DNA from: a virus
Lineage: Duplodnaviria; Heunggongvirae; Uroviricota; Caudoviricetes
Length of the DNA stretch: 41,073 nt
Virus record (IMG/VR): IMGVR_UViG_2537561979_000009
Location: 1 to 41,073 of that record
Direction: 5' to 3' (one strand)
Shown here: one piece after another, positions 25,201 to 41,073 of the stretch
How positions within the stretch are numbered: position 1 is the stretch's first letter
How the letters are laid out: each line of letters opens with the position of its first letter
Made by a program: the position numbers and the translations under genes
Notes under the pieces: generated by a model
What the model was told of the DNA's origin: nothing
Seen by the model: the letters and a program-made list of their open reading frames with translations, nothing else
Database searches by the model: none

Positions 25201-26307
25201 ATGAAAAATTTAACAGTGGCACTTTCTGCTGTAGCAGCATCAGTATTTCTGGCAACGTCTTCAAATGCAGCAGAAATATACAATAAAGATGCAAACAAAG
25301 TGGATTTATACGGTAAAGCAGTTGGTTTACATTATTTTTCTTCTGATAAGGACCAAAACGGAGATCAGACTTACGCACGCCTTGGATTCAGAGGTGAAAC
25401 CCAAATAAATAATTATATTACTGGTTTTGGTCAGTGGGAATATAATTTCCAGGGGAACAACCCTGAAGGGGATGGAGCTCAAACTGGAAACAAGACTCGC
25501 CTGGCATACGCTGGTCTGAAGCTTGCAGATGCTGGCTCTCTTGATTATGGTCGTAACTACGGCGTGGTGTACGACGCATTAAGCTACACTGACGTCTTCC
25601 CGGAGTTTGGACCTACCGCAGCGCAAGACGATAACTTCTTCGTTGGTCGTGTAGGCGGTGTTGCCACATACCGCAACACTGACTTTTTTGGACTGGTCGA
25701 TGGGCTTAGCTTTGCAATTCAGTATCTGGGAAAAAATGAACGCAAGGATAAACCAGATACTTCAAACGGAGAGGGTGTAGGTGGCTCTGTCAGCTATGAA
25801 TATGAAGGATTTGGTTTTGTCGCAGCATACGGCGCTGCTGATCGTACTAAAAATCAGAAAAAGGCTGAGCTTGGTAAAGGGAAAAAAGCTGAACAGTGGG
25901 CCACCGGGGTAAAATATGACGCAAATAATCTGTACCTGGCTGCCAGTTATGGTGAAACAAATAATACCCGTGCAATATCGTATGGTGATAATATTTCAGG
26001 AGTGGCGAATAAAACCGAAGATTTCACTGTTGTGGCACAATACCAGTTCGACTTTGGATTACGCCCGTCTCTTGCTTATACCCACTCTAAAGCAAAAAAC
26101 CTTTCATCCAGTACTGATATTAGTAAAAAACATGATGACGGATATATTGAAAAATTCGTTGAAGTCGGGGCTTCTTATTACTTCAACAAAAATATGTCTA
26201 CATACATAGATTACAAAATCAATATGCTCGATAAAAATAAATTCACTGAAAGAACAGGAGTATCAACCGACGATATTGTCGCTGTTGGTCTGGTTTATCA
26301 GTTCTGA
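25201..26307 (+). CDS. Outer membrane porin, OmpC/OmpF/PhoE family (prophage Lc/NmpC-like lysogenic conversion porin)
   Basis: 368 aa, signal peptide, ends in the beta-barrel motif ...VGLVYQF; AT-rich upstream region. Confidence 0.85.
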
Positions 26308-28900: not shown

Positions 28901-29296
28901 TTACCGAGTTGCTAATTTGCAACTCGCTTTTTCGTACTTACTGATAGTGATCTCGACCTTCCCCTCCGGGATAACCGGTCCCCACTCCACCAGCATTCTT
29001 TTCACCTGACTGTCGTCTTCCCACACCCCCGCGTGGGTCAGGGCGTCAAACAGCGCCTTGTTATAGTTGTCCAGATCGCGGATCCGGTTATCCGGAGGAA
29101 ACAACACGATCTCCACTGAAGCAGGTGCCGACGTTGGTTTCGGCAGACGACGTAACTGCTCAACTATTGCTGCGCACGCCGCGCTCTGAAATTTTCGCCC
29201 CGCCGCGCTTATCAGGCTCTTACCAGCAAATGCCCCTTTGTTGGGGTGTCGCCAGTACGTGTTCACGCTGGGCGGGAAAGGCAGGATCAGCTTCAT
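28901..29296 (-). CDS. rusA: Holliday junction resolvase RusA
   Basis: 131 aa, ...PPSVNTYWRH...DLDNYNKALFDALTHAGVWEDDSQV..., RusA family pattern. Confidence 0.8.
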   Translation of the reverse strand: MKLILPFPPSVNTYWRHPNKGAFAGKSLISAAGRKFQSAACAAIVEQLRRLPKPTSAPASVEIVLFPPDNRIRDLDNYNKALFDALTHAGVWEDDSQVKRMLVEWGPVIPEGKVEITISKYEKASCKLATR

Positions 29297-29619
29297 ACTT
29301 TCAGGCCTCTCTCATGTAACCAGTGGGTTGCACGCAGCCTGGCGTTTTCCTCACCGGCAAGCAGTGAGCGGATAATCCCGACCGCCTCGCTGTCGTCGTC
29401 CTTCACCGCGGTATGAAGAGTGATACCCCGGGCCACGCCACGCTTTATCGTGATGACGCCTTTTTTCTCCAGTGCGCGAAGATGTTCCACCGCTGCATTC
29501 ACTGAACGGTATCCCAGTATGGTTGCCACCTCCTGATTGGTTGGCGGGAAGCCACGTTCTTTCTGGTAAGAAATCAGCATATCCAGCACCTGCTGCTGGC
29601 ATTGAGTTAACGTCGTCAT
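29293..29619 (-). CDS. LexA N-terminal DNA-binding-domain-like protein with no peptidase domain, 108 aa
   Basis: LTQCQQQVLDMLISYQKERGFPPTNQEVATILGYRSVNAAVEHLRALEKKGVI closely parallels the LexA winged helix; no S24 domain follows. Confidence 0.6.
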   Translation of the reverse strand: MTTLTQCQQQVLDMLISYQKERGFPPTNQEVATILGYRSVNAAVEHLRALEKKGVITIKRGVARGITLHTAVKDDDSEAVGIIRSLLAGEENARLRATHWLHERGLKV

Positions 29620-30269: not shown

Positions 30270-30763
30270 TAAGCCCCCACGTAATTCCTTGACAGATACC
30301 ACTCATCACCCGATACAGCTCGCTTGCTGCTTTTCCGTAAGCACTGCTCACGACGCGCCAGAAAATTGTTTCGTTCTGGCTGGGAGTGGCTTTCTCGGAA
30401 TGCCGCCATCCACACCGTTGCAGCACGACGGTATAAACCCCTGGACTCCAGCTCTTCAGCCTGGCGGGTCAGGCACAAAATCACCCGGGGATCGTTAGTG
30501 CCGACATAGAAATTGCGCACAGGTTTGGTTTCACGAACTGGTTGTGGTTCCGGCTCCTGCGCTCTCTCAGTCAGGCGTGGGAAATGTCTGCGTGTATCTC
30601 CTTCACAACGGTGAGCCACACGCCCACTCTGACGTAACTTGCTTGCTGACTGCAGAACGCGCTGCCGTGAGTAACCTGCAAAAGCATCCGCAATGTCTCC
30701 GGAAGTACACCCCGGATGGGCTTCAATGAATTTCTGAACTTCATTCAAAAGACTCATGATCAC
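30269..30763 (-). CDS. Putative PerC-family transcriptional regulator, 164 aa
   Basis: Motif ...LESRGLYRRAATVWMAAF... is reminiscent of PerC/Pch proteins; start overlaps the O-like gene stop. Tentative. Confidence 0.35.
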   Translation of the reverse strand: MIMSLLNEVQKFIEAHPGCTSGDIADAFAGYSRQRVLQSASKLRQSGRVAHRCEGDTRRHFPRLTERAQEPEPQPVRETKPVRNFYVGTNDPRVILCLTRQAEELESRGLYRRAATVWMAAFRESHSQPERNNFLARREQCLRKSSKRAVSGDEWYLSRNYVGA

Positions 30764-31578
30764 CCCCTGAATCCTGCCGGGATCTGGCTGTAGTCCACGT
30801 TGTCGTAACTGGCTTTGAAGTACGGGTCCTCACGTCTGGCTGCAGATACCGCAGGAACTTCCCAGGGTTCTTCGAAATGACGATCCGGACCAAAGAACGT
30901 GACAGCCTGTTTCACAAATTGTGTGCCGCTGTTACCCATCGCAGATACCCAGCCCGCGTAGCGTTTCACACCTTCCAGCATGGTTTCGGGGTTTACCCCC
31001 TCATTCAAACGGGCTTTCCAGGCTTTGAAGGCTGCAGATTTTGAATTGCCACCAGCACGTTTGGGATATGCCAGCCATGCCTGCTCAAACTCCGGAGAGT
31101 ATTCCGGTCGGTTTGAACGAACTCGCACAGACTCATCAGCAGATGCACCAACAGCTATTGGTTCATTGACTGGTTCTTTGACTGGTTCAAAAGAGTGACT
31201 GGTTCTGGGTGAATCTCCTGCACTACCCCCTGGTGCAACTCCTGCACTACATGGTGAATTTGCTGCACCAGATAGTGAATTATTTGCACTACCCCCTAGT
31301 GAATCTCCTGCACCATCCAGATGAAGGAGATAGATATTACTTGAGTTACCTTTTTCACCTTTCCGGGTGACTTTTTTTACCAGCCCGGACTCACAAAGGG
31401 CCGCAATATGATTCATCACAGAACGTTTGCTAATCTCGCACTGGTCAGCAATATGCTGGTAGCTGGGCCAGCACTCACCCTGATCGCTGGCATTATCAGC
31501 CAGCTTGATCAGAACCAGTTTTCGCAATGGATTACCCACTCGAATTTTCATCGCTTTAACCATCAGCTCCATACTCAT
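30760..31578 (-). CDS. Replication initiation protein (lambda O analogue) with internal iterons
   Basis: N-terminal winged-helix region (LRKLVLIKLADNASDQGECWPSYQHIADQCEISKRSVMNHIAALCESGLV), Gly/Ser/Ala linker encoded by iteron DNA; early-right operon position. Confidence 0.6.
   Translation of the reverse strand: MSMELMVKAMKIRVGNPLRKLVLIKLADNASDQGECWPSYQHIADQCEISKRSVMNHIAALCESGLVKKVTRKGEKGNSSNIYLLHLDGAGDSLGGSANNSLSGAANSPCSAGVAPGGSAGDSPRTSHSFEPVKEPVNEPIAVGASADESVRVRSNRPEYSPEFEQAWLAYPKRAGGNSKSAAFKAWKARLNEGVNPETMLEGVKRYAGWVSAMGNSGTQFVKQAVTFFGPDRHFEEPWEVPAVSAARREDPYFKASYDNVDYSQIPAGFRG
31209..31313. repeat. Five phased iterons GTGAATnnnnTGCAC (one variant), candidate replication origin
   Basis: Copies begin near 31209, 31233, 31254, 31275 and 31299 (spacing 24/21/21/24 bp); additional TGACTGGTTC x3 at about 31166-31205. 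Confidence 0.65.
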
Positions 31579-31799
31579 GCTGCACCTCCGAGATGCTTCA
31601 TGTTTTTTCCGGAGCGAAAGGCTATAAGCGGCATACTGATGCGGTAATTACGGCCCAGCGGTTCACAAATCACCTTCTGACATTCACGGTCAACCAGGCT
31701 AACACGTAGAACATGCCCTGCAGGCGTGGTGTACCACTGACCCGGACGAGGACAACGGAAAGTCTGATTGGTAAAACGTTTGAAAATATTCCGGATCAT
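31575..31799 (-). CDS. Hypothetical small protein, 74 aa
   Basis: Start overlaps the Rha stop and its stop overlaps the O-like start. Confidence 0.4.
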   Translation of the reverse strand: MIRNIFKRFTNQTFRCPRPGQWYTTPAGHVLRVSLVDRECQKVICEPLGRNYRISMPLIAFRSGKNMKHLGGAA

Positions 31800-32959
31800 T
31801 TGCGCCCCCTTACCTCTGAAGGGTTCAGCGACAAATTTATGAGGCAGGCCAGTGCCGAAGCATCATTAATATAGTCATATAAGCTAACAGCCAGCGGAGA
31901 TTCGGCTTTTGCCAACATAGGATAAAGCTGCTGCAGCCAGACCTGATGAATTGATGAAATGTAGGAACAGAGAACGCTGGCGTTATGTGCAACGTCGCTC
32001 GGTACAGCGGGCTTTGAAAGCTGTTTCTCCATCTGGTTAAAGGCATTGATGTATGCCTCTTTGAACTGGGCAGCACGTTTCCCCGTGAAACCCATAGCAA
32101 GAAACGCAAAGCCGTCGCGGGTTATTTGATAGCAAGGAAGTTTGCGAGTACCGCCGTTGGGCTGGCGTACCAAAATTGATGTCTCCGCAAAATTGCGGGC
32201 ACAAAACTCTGGAGAACAATCCAAAATGCGGATCTTTTTCAGAACATCGTCATGACGTTTAGAGAAGAAGTCAGCAACAGCCAAAGAAGATGTAACAGCC
32301 TGACCATCAACGATGGCAATTTCAGGTTGAGAGAGGGTTGGGAGAGTAGTCATGGTGACAGCCCCGGTAGTCAGTTTTTTAGAAAACTCACCACATGGGA
32401 CGCCAATCACAGAGGTGGTGAGACGTACAGGGTTGGCGTTACCGGAGACTACCGAACCCGGCCCGACCGAAGTCGGCCCTGTACGCCCCACCATAATTTG
32501 GGCGTAGCAATGCTCATGACACGAAAAAACCGCATGAGCGCGGTTATGCTCAGTAATCAATTTCAGGACGCCAATCCCGGCACCCGTTTTATAAGGTGCC
32601 TGAACAGTGTAACGTCCCGGAATGGCAGAATCAATGTGCTGGTGGTCCTTCACACTCAACAAAATCACGCCTGAATTTCCACAAAGGACTAAAGCACTCA
32701 TGCGGGTAGTCTTTGCGAAAATAGATAACGCGCTGTGTTTCTGGTTCCCAACGAATAACATGAACATAAAGTCCTCTTCCGTCACGAAACCAGCGGTTAA
32801 GTTCCTGCACAACTCGCCCCCCACAGTCAGGTAAAGTTCTCTGTGGTTACTTACAGCCAGGTGATTTGGTAATCTGCATTCATGCCGTAACAACAGGTGT
32901 TCAGCCACGCGGACCACCAGCTGTTGCGACCAACGGTTATTTGCCGTTAAACTGTTCAT
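31796..32959 (-). CDS. Rha family phage regulatory protein; Rha domain in the C-terminal 185 aa, N-terminal 202 codons of uncertain reality
   Basis: MTTLPTLSQPEIAIVDGQAVTSSLAVADFFSKRHDDVLKKIRILDCSPEFCARNF...MGFTG matches the Phage_pRha pattern and begins at an internal Met near 32353; the ORF stays open to 32959. Confidence 0.6.
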   Translation of the reverse strand: MNSLTANNRWSQQLVVRVAEHLLLRHECRLPNHLAVSNHRELYLTVGGELCRNLTAGFVTEEDFMFMLFVGNQKHSALSIFAKTTRMSALVLCGNSGVILLSVKDHQHIDSAIPGRYTVQAPYKTGAGIGVLKLITEHNRAHAVFSCHEHCYAQIMVGRTGPTSVGPGSVVSGNANPVRLTTSVIGVPCGEFSKKLTTGAVTMTTLPTLSQPEIAIVDGQAVTSSLAVADFFSKRHDDVLKKIRILDCSPEFCARNFAETSILVRQPNGGTRKLPCYQITRDGFAFLAMGFTGKRAAQFKEAYINAFNQMEKQLSKPAVPSDVAHNASVLCSYISSIHQVWLQQLYPMLAKAESPLAVSLYDYINDASALACLINLSLNPSEVRGRK

Positions 32960-33857: not shown

Positions 33858-34550
33858 ATGAACATAGGAAACCGAGTCAGACAACTTCGCCAGGCGAAGA
33901 ACATGAAAATCGCCGATCTCGCTGAAGCAATAGGAGTGGATGCGGCGAATATCTCACGCCTGGAAACAGGTAAGCAGAAACAATTCACTGAACAAGCCCT
34001 GAGTAATATTGCCAGGAGCTTAGGTGTTGATATTGCTGATCTCTTTACCTCAGACTTCAAAAGTAATACTGTATGTAAAAACAGTATTAGTGAGGATGTT
34101 GCGCAGGTGAAGGATGTATTCCGTATTGAAATGCTGGATGTCAGTGCCAGTGCGGGAAATGGCCTTATCCAGGGCGGTGATGTCATTGATGTGATTCATG
34201 CCATTGAATACAGAACTGATAATGCTGTATCGATGTTTGGCGGACGGCCAGCCAATCACATTAAAGTTATCAACGTTCGTGGGGACAGTATGTGTCCAAC
34301 CATTGAACCAGGAGATCTCATCTTCGTTGATGTCAGTATCAATCAGTTTGATGGAGATGGTATCTATGTATTTGGTTTTGATGATAAAATTTATGTCAAA
34401 CGACTGCAAATGATACCTGACAAACTACTGGTGATTTCTGATAACCAGATTTACCGTGAATGGGGAATTACCAGCGAAAATGAACACCGGTTTATGGTCT
34501 TTGGAAAGGTCTTAATCAGCCAGTCACAAACCCTTAAGCGACACAATTAA
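33858..34550 (+). CDS. cI: CI repressor: N-terminal HTH plus C-terminal S24 (LexA-like) autoproteolytic domain
   Basis: 230 aa; HTH (MKIADLAEAIGVDAANISRLETGKQ), C-terminal GDSM serine and KR lysine motifs. Confidence 0.85.
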   Translation: MNIGNRVRQLRQAKNMKIADLAEAIGVDAANISRLETGKQKQFTEQALSNIARSLGVDIADLFTSDFKSNTVCKNSISEDVAQVKDVFRIEMLDVSASAGNGLIQGGDVIDVIHAIEYRTDNAVSMFGGRPANHIKVINVRGDSMCPTIEPGDLIFVDVSINQFDGDGIYVFGFDDKIYVKRLQMIPDKLLVISDNQIYREWGITSENEHRFMVFGKVLISQSQTLKRHN

Positions 34551-39837: not shown

Positions 39838-41073
39838 CTACGCAAACTGTCCGTTGGAGATTAAGTCAGTACAAGTAACGATCGATTCAACCCTCTCCCA
39901 CCATGCCCAGTAAGCTTTACGCTGTTCTTCTAGATAATCGCTCTTATCATAAACTTGCCATACACCTGGCAGTTTATGACCGAGCATTATTTCAGCAATA
40001 TGAGGAGCAGTAAGATCAGAAAAGTTTGTTCGTGCTGTTCGTCTCAAATCATGAAGAGACCAATGAGGAAATTGATACCCCAAACGTCGCCATGCGAACT
40101 GCATTAAATTGTAAGGCAGCGACTGCAATGATGTCCGACCAACTGGCTCCCTGCTTCCTTCCTTAGTAAAAAGCATATCGGAACCGTTGTTCATAGAGAT
40201 AACGTATTTTATAAGCTCTTCAACCGGTTCAATAATGGGCCGCTTTAGCGGTTCGCCTGTTATGTCCCCAGTCTTATGTCGTTCTGGTGGTACAGTCCAT
40301 ACCTTATTTATGAAATCAAAATCATCCACCCTAGCAGTAATTAGCTCTGAACTACGGCAACCAAAATGCAGCAATAGTTTAATGAAGGCTCGGTATTTAG
40401 GAACCATTCGAGAACCATCGATCGCAGCATAAAGGATGTTAATTTCATCATGTGTCAGAAACCGTTTTTTCTGACCTTTACGGATATCCATATCTTTACC
40501 CGTGATATCCGACAGTGGGCGAGTTTCAATGAGCTTTCTCTTATACGCCCAGACATGGGCCTGCTTTGCGTTAATTAGCAATCGGTCTACTATTGCTGGA
40601 GTCTTGGTGCTAAGAGGCTCCAGGACTTCTAACCAATCATGCAATGTAGCTGCATCGTGAGGGATATTCCCGATTTTAGAGAACAGGTGCAGCTCAAACG
40701 AGCGGAGTATCTGTTCAGAACCTTTTTTATTTTTTACACAATATGCTTCATACCAGGCACGGATCACAGACTCTACCGTCATGGCTTCAGTAGCTTTTCG
40801 TTTTTCAGCCTGCTTGACTAATCGTGGATTGCGGTTTGACTCGAGTTCACCACGGAGACGGATAACTTCTTCTCTGGCCTCTTTTAATCCAGTTGCCGGG
40901 TAAGTTCCGATATCAAGGCGCTCACCTTTCCCTGCCCATTGATAACGATATTGGAACACTACGCGACCTTTCGGTGATACTCTGACAGACAGACCATCAC
41001 GATCGGATTTAACCAAAACCTTATCACGTTCCTTTCCAACGACTGAACGCAACCACGCATCAGACAGCGCCAT
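39838..41073 (-). CDS. int: Tyrosine integrase, P4-type with DUF4102-like N-terminus
   Basis: 411 aa; N-terminal ...LSVRVSPKGRVVFQYRYQWAGK arm-binding-like region and C-terminal R...HDLRRT...LGH...Y catalytic motifs; ATG occupies the last three bases of the window. Confidence 0.85.
   Translation of the reverse strand: MALSDAWLRSVVGKERDKVLVKSDRDGLSVRVSPKGRVVFQYRYQWAGKGERLDIGTYPATGLKEAREEVIRLRGELESNRNPRLVKQAEKRKATEAMTVESVIRAWYEAYCVKNKKGSEQILRSFELHLFSKIGNIPHDAATLHDWLEVLEPLSTKTPAIVDRLLINAKQAHVWAYKRKLIETRPLSDITGKDMDIRKGQKKRFLTHDEINILYAAIDGSRMVPKYRAFIKLLLHFGCRSSELITARVDDFDFINKVWTVPPERHKTGDITGEPLKRPIIEPVEELIKYVISMNNGSDMLFTKEGSREPVGRTSLQSLPYNLMQFAWRRLGYQFPHWSLHDLRRTARTNFSDLTAPHIAEIMLGHKLPGVWQVYDKSDYLEEQRKAYWAWWERVESIVTCTDLISNGQFA

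Follow-up and report, generated by a model that had tools for sequence, protein, structure and literature searches.

A putative replication origin inside the initiator gene of a lambdoid prophage, with phased dyad-symmetric iterons and a family-wide core

The virus record analysed here (IMG/VR IMGVR_UViG_2537561979_000009, Caudoviricetes; 41,073 nucleotides, the whole of which is referred to below as the window) holds a nearly whole prophage, from the tail genes through to the integrase gene (39838-41073). On its minus strand, within the lambdoid early right operon, lies a gene for a replication initiator whose middle part carries an array of five short dyad-symmetric repeats (iterons) and, next to it, copies of a 10-mer. 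This report concerns that initiator gene, the repeats within it and the case for regarding them as the origin of replication of the phage. Coordinates of the features are collected in Table 1.

The initiator protein matches HTH_36 (PF13730) at aa 17-67 in Pfam (E 1.8e-11, 44 bits against a cut-off of 25), with a weak further match to the DnaD N-terminal domain. A profile of phage proteins, phrog_270 'replication initiation protein', covers it over its whole length (E 2e-88, aa 3-271), so that both the domain and the full-length profile match place it among the HTH_36 / PHROG 270 phage replication initiators. Its N-terminal and C-terminal halves each match separate PHROGs as well, and aa 147-272 match the C-terminal parts of those named 'DnaD-like helicase loader', 'primosomal protein' and 'replication protein'; the C-terminal module had no Pfam or PDB sequence match. 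AlphaFold2 predicts a winged-helix fold for aa 1-88 at a pLDDT of 80-90, disorder for aa 90-155 (pLDDT <50), which is the part encoded by the iterons and 10-mers, and a small helical domain at aa 160-215. With 99% identity the gene matches the 'replication protein' gene of SfV, cdtI, mEp460, Ayreon and Stx2c/Stx2a phages, and the sb42 protein of the Salmonella phage ST64B is 88% identical to the window initiator. Some database records name close homologues 'primosomal protein I'. Homology to lambda O (PF04492, Phage_rep_O) was considered and rejected, there being no Pfam match at E ≤ 0.01 and a probability of only 4% when the N-terminal profile was compared with lambda O by hhalign. The initial annotation, made from the DNA letters, had called the gene 'O-like'. 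This description is apt for layout and predicted function, in which the initiator resembles lambda O, and fails as a statement of homology, as none is detectable in the sequences.

The array consists of five 15-bp dyad-symmetric repeats at 31209-31313 with start-to-start spacings of 24, 21, 21 and 24 bp, and Tandem Repeats Finder reports it with a period of 24 and 4.6 copies. Exact copies of GTGAATnnnnTGCAC stand on the plus strand at 31209, 31254, 31275 and 31299, all four inside 105 bp, and a search of both strands of the 41-kb window with up to one mismatch returned those four only (shuffled sequence gave a mean of 1.1 per window). The fifth copy, GTGCAACTCCTGCAC at 31233, differs at two positions and keeps both the phasing and the dyad GTGMA-N5-TKCAC. 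Across the sites of this class, referred to as class A, the dyad reaches two bases past the search motif on either side, with T at -2 in 91% and A at +16 in 84% of sites, giving an extended 19-bp iteron TRGTGMA-N5-TKCACYA. The arms are fixed and the central five bases variable; the encoded residues, such as GAGDS, SANNS, GAANS and SAGVA, therefore vary too. The iterons occupy codons 89-124, between the winged-helix and C-terminal domains, and together with the 10-mers they span codons 89-138. Since the encoded peptide is predicted to be disordered, there is probably little constraint on this linker at the protein level. Between 30700 and 31700, the region examined, no other repeat cluster resembling an origin turned up. 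The plus strand, antisense to the initiator gene, has a terminator-like hairpin with a T-run after it at 31355-31370, some 40 bp away from iteron 1; its region varies in relatives, conservation was not seen and the hairpin may be a chance occurrence.

The 10-mer TGACTGGTTC is found exactly at 31167, 31179 and 31196 on the plus strand (span 31167-31205) and has no other exact copy in the window. In the gene direction it reads GAACCAGTCA. Two of the three copies fall within a 37-bp core that is shared by the whole family of related genes and, in 91 of 98 family arrays, follows the last iteron immediately; the sequence directly 3' of the last iteron is CCAGAACCAGTCACTCTTTTGAACCAGTCAAnGAACC in all relatives. 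The initial annotation had proposed five iterons 21-24 bp apart in a linker-coding stretch, all of which is borne out, together with three further repeats upstream of them. For the latter the count was right and the side was wrong. The gene is on the minus strand, so the 10-mers lie downstream of the iterons despite their lower plus-strand coordinates; nor are they separate repeats, being instead part of the family-wide core.

Table 1. Positions of the initiator gene, the domains that it encodes and the elements of the putative origin in the window
Feature	Position	Strand	Remarks
Replication initiator gene, containing the putative origin	30760..31578	-	272 aa + stop codon, from ORF listing
Coding region of N-terminal winged-helix DNA-binding domain (aa 1-88)	31315..31578	-	Recognition helix ISKRSVMNHIAAL
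Iteron 1 (gene order)	31297..31315, core 31299-31313	-	GTGCAGGAGATTCAC on gene strand; exact pattern match
Iteron 2	31273..31291, core 31275-31289	-	GTGCAAATAATTCAC on gene strand; exact match
Iteron 3	31252..31270, core 31254-31268	-	GTGCAGCAAATTCAC on gene strand; exact match
Iteron 4	31231..31249, core 31233-31247	-	GTGCAGGAGTTGCAC on gene strand; variant with TGCAC in both arms; fits class-A GTGMA-N5-TKCAC
Iteron 5	31207..31225, core 31209-31223	-	GTGCAGGAGATTCAC on gene strand; exact match; abuts conserved core
Family-wide conserved 37-bp core	31172..31208	-	CCAGAACCAGTCACTCTTTTGAACCAGTCAAAGAACC on gene strand; two GAACCAGTCA 10-mers within
Third GAACCAGTCA 10-mer (TGACTGGTTC on + strand)	31167..31176	-	Present in the window's lineage and some others; variable in relatives
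Coding region of C-terminal module (aa 156-272)	30763..31113	-	Small helical domain and disordered tail
Last nine codons, SQIPAGFRG	30763..30789	-	8/9 identical (BLASTP) to the end of E. coli DnaT, SQIPPGFRG; both at the extreme C-terminus

Relatives of the gene were gathered in two ways. A viral sample was taken from contigs found via the conserved core and yielded 117 usable open reading frames (ORFs), while a genomic sample of 80 loci in 77 genomes, one genome per species, was found by N-terminal protein patterns only. An array of 1-8 repeats stands at the same place in the 117 viral and 80 genomic relatives, and spacings fall at 21-24 bp in 328 of the 350 intervals among family arrays. Homologues from Aeromonas, Vibrio, Stenotrophomonas, Serratia and Salmonella phages and from the Min27 group, whose N-terminal domains are 65-81% identical to that of the window (aa 1-72), each carry at this place an array with a repeat sequence of its own.

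The repeat sequence follows the recognition helix of the adjoining domain. Among the roughly 200 relatives, 42 recognition-helix signatures fall into 7 repeat classes and no signature occurs in two classes. Helices SKRSVMN, SRRSVIN and similar go with the repeat GTGMA-N5-TKCAC; SRSTVKS and GRSTVKV with GGGCAG-N3-CTGNCC; SKSAVRx with YRTGCC-N6-9-GCAYA; DRSTVRK with GTAGGCC…; SRKTAIG and TRTTAIN (xRxTAIx) with GTGTA-N5-TACAC; and DRRTAMR and SKRSVMR with GTGAY-N5-RTCAC. The repeat that the Min27-type helix VSRSTVKSHIRAL would be expected to bind is GGGCAGGAGCTGCCC.

Downstream of the repeats the family is mosaic. Behind the N-terminal domain, iterons and core stand C-terminal parts of at least six unrelated types, of which the window's is usually without a helicase or loader gene nearby. 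Another type is followed by a DnaB-like helicase, one (Min27, SI8) by a primase-helicase, one by a lambda-P-like gene and two by DnaC-like genes, one of these two having a lambda-O-like C-terminus; the names primase-helicase, lambda-P-like and DnaC-like come from a reading of the sequences rather than from a family search. Repeat class and C-terminal type are related many-to-many; the repeats are inherited together with the N-terminal domain and in no case with one of the six interchangeable C-terminal modules. In natural recombinants (P0064, P0069 and P0072), the C-terminal half found in the window is preceded by a Min27-type or CSKSAVR-type N-terminus together with the repeats that belong to it. 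The core is the point at which N-terminal and C-terminal parts are exchanged. For the placing of junctions the ST64B case alone was used, a scan of DNA identity having a scoring that inflates identity for unrelated sequences. In ST64B (L002 3001-3819) all 255 of the 255 N-terminal coding bases compared are identical to the window and the C-terminal coding DNA is ~81% identical. A codon listing shows the two diverging just after the core's third 10-mer, which places the recombination junction there.

The number of iterons is labile. It differs between near-identical genes, as in cdtI, where 66 additional bp amount to three extra iterons. Proteins that are 87-99% identical range from 242 to 302 aa in length, with the differences concentrated in the repeat block; as read from the sequences, those of 242-250 aa have one or two repeats and those of 294-302 aa eight or more (P0001-P0042; cdtI L001 3001-3885). 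Genes of Min27 type have 1, 2, 3 or 5 copies.

Covariation, co-inheritance, dyad phasing and copy-number change are the features from which lambdoid origins were first identified. The architecture of such an origin inside its initiator gene is found here in two respects, with phased dyad repeats in the linker-coding part and iterons that co-vary and co-segregate with the N-terminal domain independently of the C-terminal domain. The comparative evidence, namely helix co-variation, co-recombination with the N-terminus, dyad symmetry, phasing and copy-number variation, supports the initial proposal of a candidate origin, and we regard it as very probable that 31167-31315 is the replication origin of this lambdoid prophage, situated inside its own initiator gene.

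The core extends beyond this prophage lineage to every locus of the genomic sample: all 80 loci, which had been picked solely by N-terminal protein patterns, carry it, and in almost every one it lies 325-440 nt from the start of the gene. It aligns gap-free with at most 6 mismatches in 37 positions in 63 of the 80, and the remainder keep the GAACCAGTCA 10-mers with altered spacing. Marine relatives from Aliivibrio (L193, L204, L206) and Shewanella (L195, L196, L198) are of this kind, the 10-mers being kept and their number and spacing changed; one marine core has three GAACCAGTCA copies, 12 and 14 bp apart.

Such uniformity at the junction of variously combined N-terminal and C-terminal modules could have arisen if the core were simply a homology patch for module exchange between phages, kept uniform by recombination and lying outside the origin mechanism. 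The junction just after the core in ST64B fits this explanation, and lambda Red-type systems need only some tens of bases of homology. However, the core is kept across Pseudomonas, Shewanella, Aliivibrio, Avibacterium, Marinobacter and Escherichia prophages in which the flanks are synonymously saturated, and with hosts so distant and flanks so diverged, homogenisation across hosts without selection on the core itself is unlikely. Moreover, its distance from the last iteron is fixed, and where spacing changes it is the 10-mers themselves that are kept. We consider the patch unlikely as a full account of the core; it is also compatible with an origin role, as a functional core would serve as a patch too, perhaps as a consequence.

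A second possibility is that the core is conserved for the peptide P-R-T-S-H-S-F-E-P-V-x-E-P that it encodes, a short linear motif through which a replication protein of the host would be bound. The peptide does show good conservation, and it lies in a disordered region, where such motifs occur. The pattern of codon use argues against it. Information content at codon positions 1, 2 and 3 is 1.72, 1.75 and 1.78 bits in the core, against 1.41, 1.55 and 0.57 bits in the N-terminal domain, and since third positions are as conserved as first and second ones, the constraint acts on the nucleic acid and not on the peptide. Where divergent pairs share a residue, its codon is the same in 82-100% of cases within the core, compared with 24-49% within the N-terminal domain. 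Most of the few substitutions in the core change the residue (T/I, S/Y, F/L/V, K/N/I), and they are confined to a small number of free DNA positions. Furthermore, the two 10-mers of the core are read in different frames, as RTSH and EPVK, which makes the GAACCAGTCA repeat a feature of the DNA. A peptide motif is accordingly an improbable reason for the conservation.

As for the iterons, they might be operators, for autoregulation or as a roadblock, with the true origin elsewhere. Rep dimers of iteron plasmids (RepE, pi, RepA) do autorepress at inverted repeats, and the initiator is a winged-helix DNA binder. Against this, the sites are within the coding region, 260-370 nt from the start codon, where no promoter-like site was found; the protein belongs to replication-initiator families, and in relatives it is fused or adjacent to partners of DnaB, DnaC, P or primase-helicase type. 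The lack of a second origin-like cluster in the region examined tells against it too, and operator and origin roles could coexist, as they do in plasmids. An exclusively regulatory function thus seems very improbable. That the repeats are a slippage-driven by-product of coding for a flexible Gly/Ser/Ala/Pro-rich linker, with no role in cis, is scarcely credible: they do encode a low-complexity, predicted disordered stretch and vary in copy number as slippage would have it, but the palindromic arms do not change, whereas the 5 nt in the middle and the residues do, as in a site bound by a protein and unlike a stretch kept for its peptide; the repeat sequence goes with the recognition helix encoded next to it, the spacing is held to 21-24 bp, and unrelated linkers (PMPPKS, GAGAA, PSDxMS) are all encoded by dyad-symmetric DNA units.

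If the segment is an origin, the core may be its second half, a site of unwinding or of helicase entry; we rate the chances of this as about even. The core is the G+C minimum within ~450 bp to either side (0.39-0.46 against 0.52-0.60), and in Pseudomonas prophages its G+C content is 0.45 against 0.60 around it. No stable single-strand structure was found in the core (z +0.5 to +0.7), and no Rfam match at E ≤ 1 pointed to an RNA element. In the route suggested by these observations, dimers of the N-terminal winged-helix domain would bind the five 19-bp dyad iterons, which are two helical turns apart and would thus lie on one face of the DNA. The resulting nucleoprotein complex would then destabilise the adjoining core with its two or three GAACCAGTCA repeats, which is lower in G+C and less structured than the DNA around it, and the C-terminal module would bring host DnaB-DnaC, possibly through a tail that copies the C-terminus of DnaT, a primosome protein of the host. 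Binding, core unwinding and helicase recruitment are all inferred steps.

Recruitment of host machinery by the C-terminal module is suggested because the phage appears to encode no helicase or loader of its own. A lambda O-P type module, in which the initiator gene adjoins a P- or DnaC-like loader or a helicase gene, was not seen in the window prophage. The initial annotation had noted that no such loader follows the gene, and this holds for the non-structural genes of the window, for the annotation of a related E. coli prophage by the Prokaryotic Genome Annotation Pipeline (PGAP), which has no helicase or loader, and for the annotation of Ayreon, a complete genome isolated on E. coli K12 that has the initiator gene and in which no helicase, primase or loader is annotated.

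A lead as to how a solo initiator might enter the host primosome pathway is offered by the last nine residues of the protein, which may mimic the tail of DnaT (Table 1). No further similarity to DnaT was seen past these residues and a PDB sequence search gave no DnaT chain, so the initiator was rejected as a DnaT homologue, the tail motif alone matching. Relatives with the same C-terminal domain end otherwise (...DYGQSDCNW, ...ENLNF, ...DKLTF), as if tails had been swapped. Among 30 distinct initiators with a GFRG tail, 26 lack any helicase- or loader-like ORF in the first 2.6 kb downstream, a weak hint that was obtained with a crude motif heuristic.

A broader and more tentative view, which we think possible though rather less than probable, is that the family is built around a shared invariant core with iterons and helicase-recruiting modules swapped on either side, that the core is a sequence-specific site and that the solo initiators mimic the DnaT tail. 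The core could then be a strand-specific site for single-stranded DNA, recognised by a conserved surface of the initiator, or a conserved site for a host factor or helicase entry, and it would not be a generic A+T-rich unwinding element.

Several points weigh against the origin and the mechanism proposed for it. The core, at ~57% A+T, is only mildly A+T-rich and is sequence-specific; no DnaA box and no promoter-like site was found in or near the origin, and there is no GATC between 30886 and 31481. Given this mild A+T content and the lack of a DnaA box, GATC cluster or promoter-like site, an unwinding role for the core is a guess. The match of 42 helix signatures to 7 repeat classes does not amount to a formal probability, because the classes were set after inspection and the sequences are related by descent. 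Variants with one or two iterons exist and are common (P0042; P0029 on 64 contigs). With regard to helicase recruitment, the Pfam scan that gave no helicase or loader match covered 17 mostly non-structural ORFs of the window and left most structural ORFs unscanned. The DnaT match extends over nine residues only, with an E of 0.01 in a single comparison, and reviews describe how DnaT recruits DnaB-DnaC as unknown and do not state a binding partner for the DnaT tail. Finally, no measured binding, unwinding or origin activity was found in the searchable literature. Records of 38-46 kb labelled 'plasmid' that carry the initiator gene were considered as evidence of autonomous replication and set aside, as they resemble circular phage genomes.

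No description of the iterons or the core was found in the searchable literature, and a text search for the sequences, including two 15-base iteron strings, returned no relevant paper. The GenBank records of SfV, mEp460 and Ayreon have no origin or iteron feature, whereas the lambda record has them. A review by Weigel and Seitz from 2006 reportedly treats 'initiator-solo' modules, so an earlier description may exist. The kind of origin proposed, inside an initiator gene, is already known; for the present family no earlier description was found. What goes beyond the ordinary is the family-wide core, the clean series of helices and iterons, and the link to Shiga-toxin phage types of undescribed replication.

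The genes around the initiator are those of a lambdoid early region. From the CI-like repressor gene (33858-34550, plus strand) the order is cro-like, CII(CP76)-like and Rha/Ash genes, a small ORF and the initiator, 3' of which follow genes for PerC-like, Dam, LexA DNA-binding domain only, RusA, KilA-N, DUF968 and Q proteins. The longest ORF upstream of the initiator (31796-32959, minus strand, 387 aa) combines an Ash domain at aa 117-212 with a Rha domain at aa 223-312. At the same place in the related E. coli prophage PGAP calls a shorter Rha gene and a DUF4222 gene, and the true start of the 387-aa ORF is uncertain for this reason. At 29293-29619 (minus strand) a 108-aa protein consists of the LexA DNA-binding domain alone (E 5.5e-19), with no peptidase domain detected in Pfam; the gene keeps the same position in cdtI, mEp460 and Ayreon. 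Further along, a complete Gram-negative porin gene (25201-26307, plus strand; Porin_1, E 3e-125) is located in the prophage, with the Q antiterminator gene on one side and the lysis region on the other.

Prophages of E. coli, Shigella and Salmonella carry the module very often. The cluster of initiator proteins at 98% identity has 2852 member sequences, and 3300 of 5426 complete E. coli genomes have matches to parts of the 6.6-kb early region around the gene. The module corresponds to the Eru6 type, with Eru5 as a sister type, both being Shiga-toxin phage classes of undescribed replication. As phage replication drives toxin gene dosage, a defined origin and defined initiator-iteron pairs would give direct experimental handles. 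The 42 helix variants and 7 site classes constitute a ready natural data set on DNA recognition by winged helices, the invariant core and the DnaT-like tail suggest steps of helicase loading that could be tested in phages lacking a loader, and the spacing variants of the marine cores offer natural material for probing the role of the core.

Among known systems, the iteron plasmids (RepE, pi, RepA, TrfA) share with the window initiator only the generic winged-helix fold. Unlike theirs, the repeats of the window are dyad-symmetric, lie inside the coding sequence of the initiator and have no DnaA boxes nearby. A likeness in origin layout and in the sequence-based nature of the inference is found with gene 18 of P22 and phage L, where different iterons within the coding region of distantly related initiators were inferred from sequence (PMC8022706). 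There the initiator is followed by a DnaB-type helicase, as it is in some members of the present family, whereas no helicase gene was found among the non-structural genes of the window phage.

By gene content the counterpart is the Eru6 module of Shiga-toxin phages, composed of a Rha/Ash protein, a small ORF and an HTH_36 protein, which is the module of the window (Fagerlund et al. 2022; PMC8951638). The Eru6 type phage Stx2a_WGPS2 has a 99% identical initiator gene, and the HTH protein reported for Eru5, with 50% identity, is that of the Min27/Xuzhou21-type gene. The Eru papers define their classes by gene content, call the replication of Eru phages unknown and do not mention iterons (PMC8951638).

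There is also a parallel with lambda, which likewise has its origin in the linker-coding middle of the initiator gene (O, which forms the O-some on four iterons). The initial annotation had drawn this parallel, and the position of the array between two domains upholds it. Judged from the lambda record and sequence, both systems have 4-5 dyad-symmetric iterons of 18-19 bp set 20-24 bp apart, and both have a non-iteron element 3' of the array, the 10-mers holding the place of the A+T-rich region of the lambda origin. In lambda O, specificity for the iterons resides in the N-terminal domain and specificity for the partner in the C-terminal domain; the mosaics suggest the same split for the family of the window. 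In other respects the two differ. No similarity to the lambda origin sequence was seen when the two were compared by eye, and the N-terminal domain is an HTH_36 domain not detectably homologous to Phage_rep_O. Lambda P delivers the helicase, whereas the window prophage has neither a P gene nor another loader among its non-structural genes. Lastly, where lambda has a long A+T-rich tract, the window has a 37-bp sequence-specific core with GAACCAGTCA repeats that is common to many iteron specificities.

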